UHGV virus genome: UHGV-0125821
Strand: one strand, 5' to 3'
DNA: 64,000 nucleotides
From: a virus
This document shows, piece by piece, positions 22,039-26,482 of this stretch; the stretch's first letter is position 1, and every line of letters begins with the position of its first letter. Both the position numbers and the translations under genes were made by a program. The notes beneath the pieces were generated by a model that was given only the letters and a program-made list of their open reading frames with translations, was not told the DNA's origin and did not search any database.

Positions 22039-22054
22039 TGTGTTAGAAATCTAA
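22039..22054. promoter_or_regulatory. Operator-like motif TGTGTTAGAAATCTAA
   Basis: Core GTTAGAA immediately followed by TCTAA; right after the 20830-22038 stop. Confidence 0.35.
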
Positions 22055-22196
22055 AATCACAATTCGAATGTATTGATTGTGAGGGTAACTTAACATAGAA
22101 TTTTCCTTGCTGGTGGGCGGTACCCACGTTTCGCTTGCTGGGCTTGATAGTCACTTATTGGTTATTGTTCGCCCACCAGCATTTAACAAATTAAAG

Positions 22197-22209
22197 TGTT
22201 AGAAAAATA
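22197..22209. promoter_or_regulatory. Operator-like motif GTGTTAGAAAAAT
   Basis: Same core as the other copies. Confidence 0.35.
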
Positions 22210-22547
22210 TAGTAACGCAAGAGCACGCTTTGGCACCGTGCAGGCCAAAGTTCAGCAGGTTTAGTGCGGAAAGTGGTTTCAGAGAGAGCACTTTGCGGAG
22301 TAAACGACAATACATGTTGAGCCACGGAAGGTCTTTTTAAGGTGTTCATTGATGATGGTCCGGCAGAGAGTAACGGTACATGCTGCATCTAATCATCAAT
22401 GCACATCTTCAACATTAAGGAGGCATAGGGATTTTTGTGGCGGTTACCTTTTGCCCTGAGTCTCCTTAATGTTGCAGTAATGCACCTATGCGGATGTGGC
22501 CTTGCATTGTGTCTTGAAAGAATGGGGTAAGGCCGGGGATATCCCCA

Positions 22548-22562
22548 GGGGGAGGCACCCCC
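22548..22562 (+). other. RNA hairpin GGGGG-AGGCA-CCCCC (1 of 3 with invariant AGGCA loop)
   Basis: 5-bp stem, 5-nt loop; stems differ between copies by compensatory changes. Confidence 0.4.
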
Positions 22563-22788
22563 GCTGCAACGAACAGCCACAGACGGCAGTCTAGTGATGG
22601 AAACGTGCAAAGACTTTAAACCTCGTTACGGCTGGCGTGGCAAACGCGACAACCGAGACAGAGCGGTGACGGGCGGAGAGAGTGCCGCATCAAGAAAGAA
22701 GCCGACTTGTGATCCCTTTCAGCGGGCATTTGAAAGTGAATCTAGCTCAGGCAGTCGGCTTCTTTCTTGTGTGAGATGTAGCGTATTT

Positions 22789-22812
22789 GCCCATCTTCGG
22801 GTGGGCTTTTTT
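22789..22812 (+). terminator. Rho-independent terminator closing an ORF-poor structured region
   Basis: GCCCATC-TTCG-GGTGGGC followed by TTTTTT; preceded by a long imperfect hairpin at about 22700-22770. Confidence 0.6.
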
Positions 22813-23272
22813 AGGGTTTTCGTCATGGTTAGCGACTTTGCGGCGGTTTAGAAACCGACCATTAAAGTAAATGCAAACGATGATCTGATGATGGTAGCGG
22901 CCTAAGAAGCCTGACGCCACGGGGTATGAGTCGTCCCCCGTCAAAAAATCGACCGCAGAGTGTCCCCGTCTGTGTATTAGGGAACGGGGAGGCATAACAG
23001 GCAAGGGCGCTGGTGTGATTAACCAGATGAATGAGAAGGGTCAGGTCTTTCTGGTCAGCGCCCTTACCTGTTACGTCCCTCCCGCGTAATAGCCATTGCT
23101 TAATGGCATCCTGGGGGAATTTCTTGTAACGGGTATATCCCGTCATGCTGAAGGCGCTAATCACGCTGGAAGCCAGGGTTATGCATCCCCTGTTACTGAA
23201 TTGCAGCCAGGGCGCGGTGCGCCGAAAAGCATACGGAGGTGGAAGCCCTCGCCGGAGACGTACCCGGCAAGT

Positions 23273-23348
23273 GATGGTGTAGCTCAGCGGTTAGAGCGGT
23301 TGACTGTTAATCAACGGGTCGATGGTTCAAATCCATCCACCATCGCCA
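23273..23348 (+). tRNA. tRNA-Asn (anticodon GTT)
   Basis: Manual fold: 7-bp acceptor GATGGTG/CACCATC, D-arm GCTC..GAGC, anticodon loop CTGTTAA, T-arm GATGG-TTCAAAT-CCATC, 3-prime CCA. Confidence 0.9.
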
Positions 23349-23350
23349 AT

Positions 23351-23426
23351 GCCGGTTTAGCTCAGTTGGTAGAGCGCCTGCCTTGTAAGCAGGATGTCAG
23401 CGGTTCGAGTCCGTTAACCGGCACCA
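23351..23426 (+). tRNA. tRNA-Thr (anticodon TGT)
   Basis: Acceptor GCCGGTT/AACCGGC, anticodon loop CTTGTAA, T-loop TTCGAGT, 3-prime CCA; 2 nt after tRNA-Asn. Confidence 0.9.
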
Positions 23427-23847
23427 ACACAACAGGTAAGGGTATTTTGCGACGTCGGAGATCGCCGTGCTTGGCAGAGGGTTCGAATCCCTACGAAGTA
23501 CCCTTACCGTTGTGATGAAGTGCAGCTCTTTGAAGCAACCAGAAGATAAGCATCTGGCTTCACAACATAAACCGCAGGAACGACCAATAAACGGTAGTCC
23601 GTATGGAGAACACCCCGTTGAGGAAGAGGCCTGGCCGGAACCGTAACCGGCACTACAACGTTAAGAACACTGGCGTAACGGGGTCATATCCCAATCTATG
23701 AATAAATGTTGCGTTGCAGCGTGACAACCAGTGTTCTCAACATTGTGGTGAATGCACAGGCTGATGTGCCGCAACTACAGTAGTGCGCGCTTTGCGGGGC
23801 TTGCTACAACCCTGTGTCGGAGTTCAGCACCGACCATCACAATCACT

Positions 23848-23934
23848 GGAGAGTAGGGAGCATGGTGCTCAAACGGTCTTGAAAACCGTCCCATTGCGCA
23901 AGCGATGATGGTTCGATTCCATTACTCTCCGCCA
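23848..23934 (+). tRNA. tRNA-Ser-like gene (anticodon TGA, long variable arm)
   Basis: Manual fold: acceptor GGAGAGT/ACTCTCC, anticodon stem ACGGT/ACCGT with loop CTTGAAA, 4-bp variable-arm hairpin, T-arm GATGG-TTCGATT-CCATT, discriminator G and CCA; D-arm short (3 bp). Confidence 0.45.
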
Positions 23935-24142
23935 GTGCAACGTTAAGAGTATTTGGCTAATTAAGCGAATGCCGGAAGCAGAACCGGATCACCAAATGCG
24001 TACAGGCGTCATCGCCGCCCAGCCAGCCAAGTGCTCTTACCATTGCGGTGAATGCGGTTAAGCGCACGCGGAACAGTTAAAACAATCCTCCTTAGTGGTT
24101 AAGTCAAACATCCCGGCGTTAATTGTTAACTGGTTAACGTCA

Positions 24143-24157
24143 CCTGGAGGCACCAGG
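24143..24157 (+). other. RNA hairpin CCTGG-AGGCA-CCAGG (2 of 3 with invariant AGGCA loop)
   Basis: Same loop as 22548 and 25771 with a covarying stem; followed by a T-run at 24166-24172. Confidence 0.4.
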
Positions 24158-24197
24158 CACCGCAGCTTTTTTATTCGTTAAATAATGGAGTGAGAGG

Positions 24198-24434
24198 ATG
24201 CAGAACAATCCGAACAAATGTCGAACGCTATGGGTGCGGTTATATATTTATGTCGCCCTCTGTTTGATTGTGTCACTGGTTCTGTATGTTTGGCTTTTGC
24301 CAAATATGATCTCATCTGACAGCACAATACTTGTATTGTTGGGAGTCCTTCTCGCGCTCATTTACCCGGCTTTTGCAGTAGTCTTTTTTCGTGAAAAAAC
24401 CAGGAAATTGATTAATGAAAAAAACGTTGATTAG
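24198..24434 (+). CDS. Small integral membrane protein
   Basis: 78 aa with two hydrophobic helices; overlaps the start of the downstream SPFH gene. Confidence 0.4.
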   Translation: MQNNPNKCRTLWVRLYIYVALCLIVSLVLYVWLLPNMISSDSTILVLLGVLLALIYPAFAVVFFREKTRKLINEKNVD

Positions 24435-25221
24435 TGCAGCGATTATTTTTGGTTCTTTATGTCTGACCGGATGCGACCGGGTAGAACCAGGCAATGTAGG
24501 GATCAAAGTAAATAAGCTGGGGGATGATAAAGGTGTCGGCGAAGTAGTTGGCGTTGGTCGCTACTGGACAGGCTGGAACACAGAAGTTTATATCTTCCCG
24601 ACCTTTAAGCAAATGAAGACCTATGATGATCCGTTCAGCTTCCAAATGAGCGACGGGACAACAATTGGTTACCACATTGGTGTAGCTTACAAGGTTGATC
24701 CGGCAAAAGTCACAACTGTATTTCAGACCTACCGCAAAGGCGTGGATGACATTACCGACACTGACCTGCGCCAGAAGATCGCCGATGCACTCAACCGACT
24801 GGCCAGCAAAATGACCACCGATAAGTTTATCGACGGTGGTAAGTCTGAACTGCTGGATTCAGCACTTAAAGATATTCAGGAAGAGATGACCCCCATCGGC
24901 ATTCAGGTCATGAGCCTCTCTTATGTCGGTAAACCGGAATATCCGCCAACCGTTATCGACAGCATTAATGCAAAAGTCACGGCGAACCAGAAAACTCTGC
25001 AACGCGAAGCAGAAGCCAACATGCTGCGCGCAGAAGCTGCCGGACAGGCCGATGCCATTCGCACAAAAGCCCAGGCTGAAGCTGATGCCATTCGTTTACG
25101 CGGTGAGGCTCTGCGCCAGAACCCCGGCGTTATGGAGTTGGAAGCGATCAACAAATGGAACGGAACGCTACCGCAGTATATGACCAGTAATACCGCTGTT
25201 CCGTTTGTTCCGGTGAAATAA
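24415..25221 (+). CDS. SPFH/band-7 (prohibitin/HflC-like) domain lipoprotein
   Basis: Lipobox LTGC in the signal peptide; SPFH-type core and Ala/Glu-rich C-terminal helix (AEANMLRAEAAGQADAIRTKAQAEADAIR). Confidence 0.65.
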   Translation: MKKTLISAAIIFGSLCLTGCDRVEPGNVGIKVNKLGDDKGVGEVVGVGRYWTGWNTEVYIFPTFKQMKTYDDPFSFQMSDGTTIGYHIGVAYKVDPAKVTTVFQTYRKGVDDITDTDLRQKIADALNRLASKMTTDKFIDGGKSELLDSALKDIQEEMTPIGIQVMSLSYVGKPEYPPTVIDSINAKVTANQKTLQREAEANMLRAEAAGQADAIRTKAQAEADAIRLRGEALRQNPGVMELEAINKWNGTLPQYMTSNTAVPFVPVK

Positions 25222-25375
25222 CCAAATAGATAACATGATGGAATTTTGGACGTTTGCCGACAAGAACCCTTGGTGGACATTTTTATTTCTGCTGGTGGTT
25301 GCATATGGGGTCGAGCAAGCAGCAAAAGCCTTACGCGGTCCTGGCAAAAAGCGTAAGCGGAATTAACAGTAATCT

Positions 25376-25451
25376 GGCCCTTTAGCTCAGTGGTTAGAGC
25401 AGGCGACTCATAATCGCACGGTCACCGGTTCAAATCCGGTAGGGGCCACCA
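25376..25451 (+). tRNA. tRNA-Ile (anticodon CAT, lysidine type; tRNA-Met not excluded)
   Basis: GGCCCTTTAGCTCAGTGGTTAGAGCAGGCGACTCATAATCGC... closely resembles E. coli ileX/ileY tRNA; 3-prime CCA encoded. Confidence 0.85.
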
Positions 25452-25770
25452 TATTTGGTTGTAACACGGCGTCTGGCACATGCGTCGTTAGCGGTCTGGT
25501 GACGTTAAAAGGGGTATCTTTGACTCTTGCTTAGGCAAACGGACCAGGTAGCCGGAATGTGCAAGCCCCGGTAACAGTGGCGGACCGAGGACTCACCATC
25601 CTGGCGATTCGGTGTGACAGCCGGAAGAGCACGGCGCACAACAGGAAAAGGCGTTTAATTAGCGTGAGCGCCGTTTCCGTTGTGGTAATTGCGGCTATGC
25701 GCTCGTGACGAAGCCATTTTCATTCACTACGTTCTGATAAGTGACGTCGCCAGGAGTGGCTAACCTGGCA

Positions 25771-25785
25771 GGTGGAGGCACCACC
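25771..25785 (+). other. RNA hairpin GGTGG-AGGCA-CCACC (3 of 3 with invariant AGGCA loop)
   Basis: Third copy with a covarying stem; in the non-coding stretch between tRNA-Ile and the 25907 gene. Confidence 0.4.
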
Positions 25786-25906
25786 GCCACAACTCCTTTC
25801 AATTCATCATATAGCCGCTCAGGCTGTACCCCTTAATTAATACGAAGTTACGACATCACTACCGGTACTTCCGGGGGATAGTCGCGCGTGTAAAAAAGGA
25901 GACGTT

Positions 25907-26482
25907 ATGTTAATGGCGAACGATAACGCATATGCAGAAGAAGATCTCATTTTGAGTGACTTCATAGGGAAGCGTGAACGCTGGACCCAAAAGCGAGAGG
26001 AACTTTACGCCTCATTAGTTCGCAAAGGCGTCAATATCGAAACCGCACAGAGCGGCGATATGACAGTGGTAAGCGTTGGATTGCACGGTGTAAGCGTGTC
26101 AGCAATCAATCATGAGCCATACGTTGCGTTATCCGAGTCAATGGTAAGGTTAGTTAAGTTCCTGAAGTACACAGAAGCGAATAATGTAATCATTGGCAAA
26201 AAGAATATCCCTTTTTCCTCGGCTTTTTACTGGATGATGAAAGGGCTTGATGCCCGGCGGACATCATGGCCTAAAGGGAGCTATATATCGATGTTCCGTG
26301 GCAGCATTGGCAGCAAAGAAAAGCTCTTCGAATTCTTGCCGGAAGAGGCATTCGATATTGTGGAAGGGTGCGATGTGATGGTGATGCCTCGCCTGGTAAT
26401 GATGAATGGTGATTTACAGGCGCAGACAGACTGGTTTGCAACTGGTGTGGATATTATCGCGACTGACTGGGAGGCTTTCTGA
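25907..26482 (+). CDS. Hypothetical protein
   Basis: 191-aa ORF; AAGGAG upstream. Confidence 0.5.
   Translation: MLMANDNAYAEEDLILSDFIGKRERWTQKREELYASLVRKGVNIETAQSGDMTVVSVGLHGVSVSAINHEPYVALSESMVRLVKFLKYTEANNVIIGKKNIPFSSAFYWMMKGLDARRTSWPKGSYISMFRGSIGSKEKLFEFLPEEAFDIVEGCDVMVMPRLVMMNGDLQAQTDWFATGVDIIATDWEAF

Follow-up and report, generated by a model that had tools for sequence, protein, structure and literature searches.

The tRNA region of a D6/P1-type phage-plasmid

The virus genome UHGV-0125821, of which a stretch of 64,000 nucleotides (nt) was analysed (the window), is nearest to phage D6 (97.7% identity in the aligned 66% of the query) and represents a D6/P1-type phage-plasmid. On its + strand lie three short hairpins with a common pentaloop: GGGGG-AGGCA-CCCCC at 22548-22562, CCTGG-AGGCA-CCAGG at 24143-24157 and GGTGG-AGGCA-CCACC at 25771-25785. 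They had been picked out in an earlier reading of the letters alone (the sequence-only reading), and are present exactly as described there. The surrounding stretch is rich in RNA features, with genes for tRNA-Asn, tRNA-Thr, tRNA-Ser and tRNA-Met/Ile(CAU), and the matching stretch in phages P1 and P7 is the C1-controlled ban operon. As set out below, all three hairpins are the terminal helix, P5, of members of a single RNA family.

AGGCA is the sole loop to occur three times among the 81 perfect hairpins with a 5-bp stem and a 5-nt loop on the + strand of the window. The 9-mer common to the three hairpins, GGAGGCACC, has only three sites in the whole 64 kb (0.34 expected), and three or more copies were reached in 1 of 100 dinucleotide shuffles of the window; the plain 5-mer AGGCA shows no enrichment there (124 observed and 139 expected). 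Within the stems, the inner two pairs are constant (GG/CC), and the outer three vary by compensatory changes.

The hairpins belong to a multi-branched RNA domain

RNAfold predictions for the ~100-135 nt that surround each hairpin, and for those surrounding a fourth stretch like them, return one shared multi-branch architecture in all four cases. From the 5' end, it comprises a closing stem, P1 (8-9 bp), a conserved unpaired AAU, a small hairpin, P2, with a conserved loop that contains GC, a variable middle, a hairpin P4, and finally the 5-bp AGGCA hairpin, P5, which directly abuts the 3' strand of the closing stem (0 or 1 base between). Additionally, the strand immediately following P2 is predicted to pair with the loop of P4, giving a pseudoknot. 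Because the 3' strand of P5 runs straight into that of helix P1, P5 can stack on P1, showing AGGCA at its tip.

All four modules lie on the + strand. The first, M1 (22472-22569; -46.7 kcal/mol, z -3.3), consists of P1 (22472-22478/22563-22569), P2 (22482-22498), a nested hairpin (22498-22534), a small hairpin (22535-22546) and P5 (22548-22562); here, two sequential hairpins take the place of the pseudoknot. M3 (24043-24165) has P1 at 24043-24050/24158-24165, P2 at 24053-24066, the pseudoknot strand at 24074-24080, P4 at 24115-24141 and P5 at 24143-24157, its predicted pseudoknot being CAGUUAA/UUAACUG; it ends 33 nt before the ATG at 24198. In M4 (25679-25793), the corresponding parts are P1 (25679-25686/25786-25793), P2 (25691-25702), the pseudoknot strand (25712-25718), P4 (25749-25769) and P5 (25771-25785), with AGCCAUU/AGUGGCU as the predicted pseudoknot, and homologues of this module are found in Klebsiella Lastavirus phages and in Escherichia coli phage LLS. 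The fourth copy, M2 (23742-23843), was absent from the sequence-only reading and is degenerate: RNAfold returns the same architecture, with P1 (23742-23750/23835-23843), P2 (23754-23769), P4 (23794-23815) and a variant P5 (23816-23834), GUCGG-AGUUCAGCA-CCGAC, the loop of which is complementary over 5 bp to the M2 P2 loop GGCUGA. M2 ends 4 nt before tRNA-Ser (23848-23934), and its sequence is identical in phage P1, RCS47 and others.

Family members were collected from IMG/VR with the pattern GGTGAATN{65,95}GGAGGCACC, which returned more than 120 loci; a filter for the closing stem and P5 left 96 distinct sequences, with 36 representatives at <85% identity. A covariance model, R1, aligned 124 hits (92 distinct) from loci excluding the window and D6, and a second model, R2, was built solely from this alignment, such that it holds no window or D6 sequence, and was run across the whole window with filters off. 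MAFFT misplaced the 3' ends of M1 and M4, which a model-guided alignment put right. R2 scores M3 at 69.8 bits (E 4e-17), M1 at 35.3 bits (E 1e-7), M4 at 34.2 bits (E 2e-7) and M2 at 15.3 bits (E 0.03), the last match covering helix P1 and GAAU only, and the next best match in the window reaches 10.5 bits; the E-values of both models are rough. Since R2 was built from other loci and nevertheless detects M3, M1 and M4, the three AGGCA hairpins are P5 of one family. Bacterial-genome loci that match the text pattern served as a negative control: the model rejects 95 of 100, and the five that pass are from Salmonella, Pluralibacter, Kosakonia, Citrobacter and E. coli, all Enterobacteriaceae; the underlying genome_contigs scan gives mostly chance matches, and the host range drawn from it is coarse. 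A second IMG/VR pattern, GTAATN{60,90}GGAGGCACC, has 14 specified bases and by estimate gives mostly chance matches, and its loci (L127-L246) were not used beyond the pattern filter.

Covariation supports an RNA structure

Across the 92 distinct sequences, helix P1 is 93% paired, with double (compensatory) changes at six of its eight pairs, and P5 is 99.8% paired, with double changes at three of five. None of 500 shuffles matched the observed covariation scores for the two helices, and sliding the partner columns by 1-3 positions lowers the pairing to 35-49%. G-U pairs occur in helix P1 and would be A-C on the opposite strand; therefore, the structure belongs to the + strand RNA. The proposal in the sequence-only reading that a conserved loop on a compensating stem reflects selection on RNA structure is thus borne out by the covariation of the family, and the signal holds under the check that it had suggested, namely a covariance-model search for conservation and compensatory substitutions in related genomes.

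The same data bear on whether the hairpins might be DNA-level palindromes serving as protein-binding sites, or products of chance. Each is indeed an inverted repeat in the DNA as well; however, all copies are on one strand and co-oriented with tRNAs and genes, the asymmetric loop is conserved in one orientation, and pairing is kept through G-U and extends to the covarying long-range helix P1 and pseudoknot. Against chance stand the shuffles of the window and the failure of most bacterial pattern matches under the model, both described above. This explanation can effectively be discounted in the light of the strand-specific covariation.

The complementarity between the P4 loop and a strand 2-5 nt 3' of P2 was seen by eye and then computed. 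Examples of the paired strands include CCAGUC/GACUGG, CUAGAC/GUCUAG, AUCAGCA/UGCUGAU, CUGGUG/CACCGG, AGACUGACA/UGUCAGUCU and AGCCAA/UUGGCU. Complementary runs average 5.60 over 43 distinct P4 loops, as against 4.35 +/- 0.15 when loops and strands are re-paired (maximum 4.88 in 2000 permutations); because the complementarity exceeds that of the re-paired controls, the domain is modelled as pseudoknotted. For the pseudoknot, as for the competition with an upstream hairpin described below, the support consists of covariation together with thermodynamic prediction.

A loop-unbiased sample is provided by five copies, from KpV2811, Sf11, LLS, SopranoGao and Kp4865-4, retrieved either on overall similarity or with a BLAST query restricted to the 5' 34 nt. 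All five have AGGCA, on the stems CCUGG/CCAGG, UCUGG/CCAGA, GGUGG/CCACC and CCGGG/CCCGG. Of the M3 orthologues, those of D6 and RCS47 also have AGGCA, as does that of P7, where the stem includes a G-U pair; extra copies from IMG/VR have, rarely, AGGCC or, in weak copies, a GAAA-type loop. The conserved loop on a covarying stem is real, although the loop is not absolutely fixed.

Both lambda and P22 boxB are 15-nt hairpins with a 5-bp stem and a GNRA-like purine pentaloop; they are free-standing, with boxA a few nt upstream, and are found just past an early promoter. The size of the AGGCA hairpin is the same, it too combines a conserved loop with a covarying stem, and two of the three in the window precede real genes; this favours the idea of the sequence-only reading that they are independent 15-nt sites that recruit an antiterminator or another RNA-binding regulator. 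The resemblance to the boxB of N-dependent antitermination (nut) sites is one of size only: the loop is not of the GNRA-like class, and the hairpin is never alone, being always the last helix of a larger covarying fold, a pseudoknotted domain of at least 100 nt that is found in many contexts. In the window, helix P4 lies directly upstream of it, and the hairpins are 450-3700 nt from the only promoter-like site. Moreover, the element occurs in virulent T1-like phages and in stand-alone small RNA (sRNA) genes that end at their own terminators, and no N-like gene is annotated in the D6, P1 and P7 stretches examined. The 15-nt hairpin as a functional unit, which was the central suggestion of the sequence-only reading, therefore gives way to a domain of ~100-125 nt whose other helices also covary, and independent boxB-like action is highly improbable.

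Other assignments of the hairpin were tried and rejected. A CsrA-type GGA hairpin does not fit, as the GGA straddles the border of stem and loop and the GGA of the P2 loop is not conserved; a Shine-Dalgarno mimic, GGAGG, is lost in phage P1's own copy (GGAAG); and neither the late-promoter nor the C1-operator DNA sites of phage P1 give a match, the element also occurring in unrelated phages.

Relationship to STnc100 and PasD

In a permissive Rfam scan, 24044-24164 (M3) matches STnc100 (RF02076) with 39.5 bits (E 2.5e-6) over model positions 31-147 of 206. The STnc100 consensus holds CCGGG-AGGCA-CCCGG, followed at once by the 3' strand of a 7-bp closing stem. Elsewhere, the STnc100 model gives 39.6 bits for the D6 orthologue, 43.8 bits for a Rac-type copy, and 57-161 bits over the full model for lambdoid copies. 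The core fold of STnc100, that is the closing stem, AAU, P2, P4 and the abutting 5-bp AGGCA hairpin, is recovered in the window modules by the R2 scores, by RNAfold and by covariation. In the permissive scan, which was run against Rfam 15 across 22300-26000 with E up to 10, no other curated family (riboswitches, ribozymes and leaders) stood out: besides STnc100, it gave tRNAs and otherwise weak matches scattered over the stretch. Self-cleaving ribozymes and riboswitches of known type were set aside, as none has an Rfam match here.

STnc100 is an Hfq-associated sRNA encoded by lambdoid prophages of Salmonella and E. coli. The window modules share its core fold; unlike STnc100, they sit inside a tRNA-containing operon and carry a competing upstream hairpin. 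They also lack what would make them stand-alone genes, namely a promoter of their own, the linker and the rho-independent terminator (model positions 1-30 and 148-206): no sigma-70-like site was found directly upstream of M1-M4, and after the modules the sole terminator-like site is 220 nt past M1, M3 being followed by a U-run only. The structure line of the Rfam family has no pseudoknot, a feature that its notation cannot show.

The PasD1 and PasD2 sRNAs of enteropathogenic E. coli prophages, detected by Hfq RIL-seq, presumably have the same core, given that PasD is reported to be structurally homologous to STnc100 (bioRxiv 10.64898/2026.05.13.724894). PasD is expressed, with a stability that depends on Hfq (PMC8550237), and both STnc100 and PasD are expressed RNAs (PMC8550237; bioRxiv 10.64898/2026.05.13.724894; PMC12370729). 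The PasD genes are stand-alone and located in the lambdoid late region beside Q and a sialate esterase gene; the window copies presumably lack the seed regions and terminators of PasD.

Judged from their sequences, the window modules are homologous to the structured core of STnc100/PasD. They are not STnc100 members by Rfam's own criterion, nor are they sRNA genes of that kind, because they fall below the gathering threshold or go undetected and are missing the promoter-proximal and terminator parts. The statement in the sequence-only reading that no such element had been described holds in so far as nothing is annotated at the module sites in the P1, P7 and D6 records; it does not hold for the domain itself, which is the core of a catalogued Rfam family.

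A competing hairpin lies upstream of the closing stem

Each window module is preceded on the + strand by a hairpin, the 3' arm of which reaches the 5' strand of helix P1. LH1 (22410-22474; inverted repeat I1) has a 3' arm that ends at the start of this strand in M1, and RNAfold of LH1 together with M1 (22330-22580) gives a z-score of -4.4, with LH1 ending where helix P1 begins. In LH2 (23651-23750; inverted repeat I5, 87% complementary), the 3' arm (23728-23750) holds the P1 5' strand of M2, and in its paralogue LH3 (23933-24050; direct repeats D3 and D5), the 3' arm (24027-24050) holds that of M3. The arms of LH4 (25637-25684) are CACAACAGGAAAAGGCG and CGCCGUUUCCGUUGUG, and the latter overlaps the P1 5' strand of M4.

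An upstream hairpin of this type, 42-154 nt in length and with its 3' arm extending into helix P1, is present in all 19 tabulated copies outside stand-alone sRNA genes (M1-M4, P1, P7, D6, RCS47, KpV2811, Sf11, LLS, both Lastavirus phages and several IMG/VR contigs), and it pairs with 5-8 nt of the P1 5' strand. At the base of the hairpin, CACAAC faces GUUGUG, so that the P1 5' strand can pair either with the upstream arm or with the P1 3' strand, (C)CACAAC. The arms covary: GGUAAGAGCA/UGCUCUUUCC, GUGAAAGCGCAC/GUGCGCUUCCA, GGGUAGCUCAC/GUGAGCUACUC, GAUGAGAGUA/UGCUCUCAUC and GGAAAAGGCG/CGCCGUUUCC. In the lineage of M3, P1 and P7, three strands have changed jointly: U to C in the P1 5' strand, A to G in the P1 3' strand and A to G in the upstream arm. 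In Sf11 and KpV2811, TAATAAT is found ~6 nt before the 5' arm, and here the primary transcript may begin with the upstream hairpin. These results come from a targeted analysis, which replaced bulk minimum-free-energy folding with 170 nt of upstream sequence; the latter was too noisy, as it includes untranscribed DNA in the case of stand-alone genes.

Mutually exclusive pairings naturally suggest a two-state switch acting in cis, in which, in operon-embedded copies, the first 6 nt of the P1 5' strand (GUUGUG) would pair with either the upstream CACAAC at the foot of the long hairpin or the (C)CACAAC of the P1 3' strand. A ligand, a protein or processing that stabilises the folded domain would turn the RNA from one state to the other and thereby alter how the following gene is expressed, with dicB, kilR, tciA/terB and the window open reading frame (ORF) at 24198 as the genes controlled. 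The exclusive pairings are found in all 19 tabulated copies, drawn from P1-like, T1-like, Lastavirus and lambdoid phages, with covarying hairpin arms; the joint change of three strands fits such a switch, although it represents one evolutionary event only. In its pseudoknotted junction, where the joining residues are conserved, the domain is reminiscent of an aptamer, and copies of the type that includes M3 (type B, see below) end a short distance before the starts of these genes. Circumstantially, tciA is over-induced in a P1vir-infected hfq mutant (bioRxiv 10.64898/2025.12.28.696737). However, the Rac- and Qin-type copies before kilR and dicB lack the competing hairpin, no expression platform is conserved 3' of helix P1, where a U-run follows only M3 in the window, and the true STnc100 copies, which are stand-alone, often in tandem groups of 3-5 and equipped with their own terminators, are unlike leaders. 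We consider a switch in cis unlikely.

Several further observations concern hairpins of the upstream type. At 22993-23075, an orphan (CAUAACAGGCAAGGGCGCUG / CAGCGCCCUUACCUGUUACG) precedes tRNA-Asn with no module after it. At 23428-23514, a remnant upstream hairpin encloses a tRNA T-arm-like sequence, GGTTCGAATCC, with the truncated start of a module (GTTGTGATGAAG) after it; the counterpart in RCS47 (L247:2233-2365) has an intact hairpin and an M2-type module. T-arm-like hairpins are also seen in or beside the upstream hairpins of L057 and LASTA. In about six of the 19 copies (window 24031-24039, P1, P7, KpV2811, Sf11 and SopranoGao), the 3' arm reads UGCUCUU(U/A), which equals the start of rrn/lambda boxA, and then continues into the GU-rich GUUGUGGUG. 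A role as a Nus-factor site appears unlikely from the sequences: the motif is confined to these copies, is base-paired and is replaced elsewhere with covariation.

Genomic contexts

Orthologous copies are found in D6, P7, P1, RCS47 and Ro157c2YLVW, and others in T1-like, Lastavirus and lambdoid phages and in the E. coli K-12 prophage Qin. The lambdoid 'type A' copies are full-length STnc100 and look like stand-alone genes: a TANNNT hexamer (-10-like) ends 4-9 nt upstream in 38 of 62 distinct copies (6% background), and a terminator-like hairpin starts ~25 nt downstream in 41 of the 62. The figures for copies that are not type A are 3/24 and 5/24, respectively. Type A copies often form tandem arrays of 3-5. 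Examples are the IMG/VR prophage contigs L098, L017, L031 and L051, each with 3-5 diverged STnc100 genes at ~250-nt spacing, every one with a terminator; an isrI-like sRNA match lies within the L098 array.

In the 'type B' copies, including M3, 28-37 nt separate the 3' end of the module from the start codon of kilR, dicB, terB/tciA or the window ORF at 24198. In E. coli K-12 MG1655, an unannotated copy (NC_000913.3, 1649455-1649580; L376:1156-1281) lies between dicF and dicB in the Qin prophage; it scores 76.3 bits and has the same CCUGG-AGGCA-CCAGG hairpin as M3. The Rac-type sequence is present in 4623 of 5426 complete E. coli genomes, nearly always with no annotated feature beneath it. A study of dicBF regulation makes no mention of the module between dicF and dicB (bioRxiv 10.1101/2023.04.14.536235).

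Further observations touch on dicF. In Rac-SA53, a sub-threshold Rfam match to DicF is found directly before the module. In the window, 22691-22812, the counterpart of the 'dicF-like region' annotated in phage P1, has a perfect 17-bp inverted repeat (22691-22707/22753-22769) and then a strong terminator (22789-22806 plus a T-run). The ORF with a GTG start at 22594, downstream of M1, runs through this inverted repeat and terminator and is probably not a gene. The distances from hairpin to start codon in the sequence-only reading are numerically correct.

The window modules are within an RNA-rich tRNA operon, the P1 and P7 equivalent of which is transcribed from the C1-controlled ban promoter. 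The region has a single sigma-70-like promoter (22073-22101), with the direct repeats GTGTTAGAAATCTAAAATCAC and GTGTTAGAAAAATATAGTAAC on either side (22040-22216); these repeats may be operator sites of the module-containing operon. In phage P1, the minus-strand ORFs plp and upl (L002:3118-3687; window 23440-23850) overlap, in antisense, an M2-type module and its upstream hairpin. The overlapping sequence is 100% identical in many P1-like phages, and long ORFs of this kind are missing from the window, so that plp and upl may be spurious.

The association with tRNA genes extends beyond the window: 43 of 133 modules (32%) have a tRNA within 1.5 kb, compared with 17% of random positions in the same loci, and in all 43 the tRNA and the module are co-oriented. 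Like M2, the LASTA copy ends ~4 nt before a tRNA, in this case tRNA-Arg. Such proximity raises the possibility that the modules are tRNA-like punctuation, the stack of P1 on P5 with a D-arm-like P2 serving as a substrate or guide for tRNA-processing enzymes and marking cleavage sites in untranslated tRNA/sRNA operons. The geometry of the terminal helices is in favour, with a stack of 8+5 bp compared with the 7+5 bp of the tRNA acceptor and T arms, a 5-bp hairpin that continues into the 3' strand of the 7-8-bp closing stem (P5 and P1 being separated by 0-1 base), and a small hairpin 2-4 nt after the 5' strand of that stem, as is the complementarity of the P5 and P2 loops in the M2-type subfamily. 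However, likeness to tRNA goes no further than this geometry, the genomic linkage and the loop-loop complementarity. The modules have the 5-nt AGGCA rather than a 7-nt T-loop, neither an anticodon arm nor a CCA end or discriminator-like sequence after helix P1, and a pseudoknot in the middle; ARAGORN reports the four true tRNAs and nothing else, and the modules also escape the tRNA model of Rfam. Furthermore, two thirds of the copies have no tRNA nearby and, M2 aside, 1 of 133 is within 10 nt of one. We regard this explanation as decidedly improbable.

A model for the domain, and its significance

What the element is, how it folds, what it is homologous to and where it occurs in genomes are direct observations: in stand-alone sRNAs the domain forms the 5' part, and elsewhere it is embedded in an operon or serves as a leader element. 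Being the only part common to all contexts, it is inferred to have a function of its own, apart from any seed sequence. The explanation that we favour, and consider probable as a whole, is that the AGGCA hairpins are P5 of the STnc100/PasD-core RNA domain, present in four copies in the window.

How it might act can be sketched more tentatively, and we would put the following scheme of maturation and docking at rather less than even confidence. The domain would be released or matured from the operon transcript to act as RNA. The upstream hairpin in M1-M4 would hold the 5' strand of helix P1 until it is cut or displaced, the cut, probably by RNase III, constituting a maturation or gating signal. 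In the processing of phage polycistronic RNA, an RNase III site is the simplest reading of such a hairpin. Once matured, the domain would persist, either as a structured RNA that is stable in itself or by forming the 5' leader of the gene that follows, and the P1-P5 stack would present AGGCA as a docking point for a host factor or for the P2 loop, in the manner of the contact between the T and D loops of tRNA. All P2 loops contain GC and are able to pair with the GC of AGGCA, and in the M2-type subfamily an expanded P5 loop, AG(A)UUCAG(C/U)A, is complementary over 5-6 bp to the P2 loop GGCUGA(U). Alternatively, the AGGCA loop may possibly be the recognition site for a protein or a processing enzyme.

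A number of findings weigh against the favoured explanation. M3 does not reach the STnc100 gathering score of 47 bits, and M1, M2 and M4 have no match to the Rfam model at E up to 10; the expression literature covers lambdoid members only (PMC8550237; PMC12370729), rather than the P1/D6 copies. By requiring GGAGGCACC, the collection pattern biased the large alignment toward AGGCA, and the loop-unbiased evidence is confined to the smaller BLAST-derived and orthologous sets. Within the latter, the M3 orthologue of phage P1 has AAGCA and that of Ro157c2YLVW has AGGAA, and because of these two the loop sequence is not indispensable in every lineage. Of the covarying stems and invariant loop in the sequence-only reading, the compensation stands, at the outer three pairs and family-wide, and the loop is not absolutely invariant. 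The complementarity between the P2 and P5 loops is limited to the M2-type subfamily and is without true covariation. Finally, for M2 and M3, the minimum-free-energy fold with upstream context favours the upstream hairpin over helix P1, and because of this preference helix P1 may not form in the primary transcript.

A bolder proposal sees in the STnc100-type core a sensor or adaptor, autonomous and pseudoknotted, which enterobacterial phages would have reused as the 5' domain of sRNAs, as a leader for the genes of the host-cell-division inhibitors dicB, kilR and tciA and as a unit of tRNA operons, its closing stem gated by the upstream hairpin and AGGCA acting as the effector or docking site for a host factor or ligand. 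We consider this unlikely; if true, it would define a new class of cis/trans regulatory RNA that is present in ~85% of E. coli genomes, including that of K-12.

Although they are abundant prophage RNAs in pathogenic E. coli and Salmonella, STnc100 and PasD have not been assigned a function. Their conserved part is the pseudoknotted 5' domain with its near-invariant AGGCA loop, and not the presumed seed or the terminator. The RNA annotation of the P1 ban/tRNA operon lacks this domain, to which the competing upstream hairpin adds a concrete and testable structural feature. Overall, the domain has spread far past the lambdoid prophages, to P1, P7, D6, T1-like and Lastavirus phages and the gap between dicF and dicB in K-12, and this wide spread provides a tractable model for asking what its role is.

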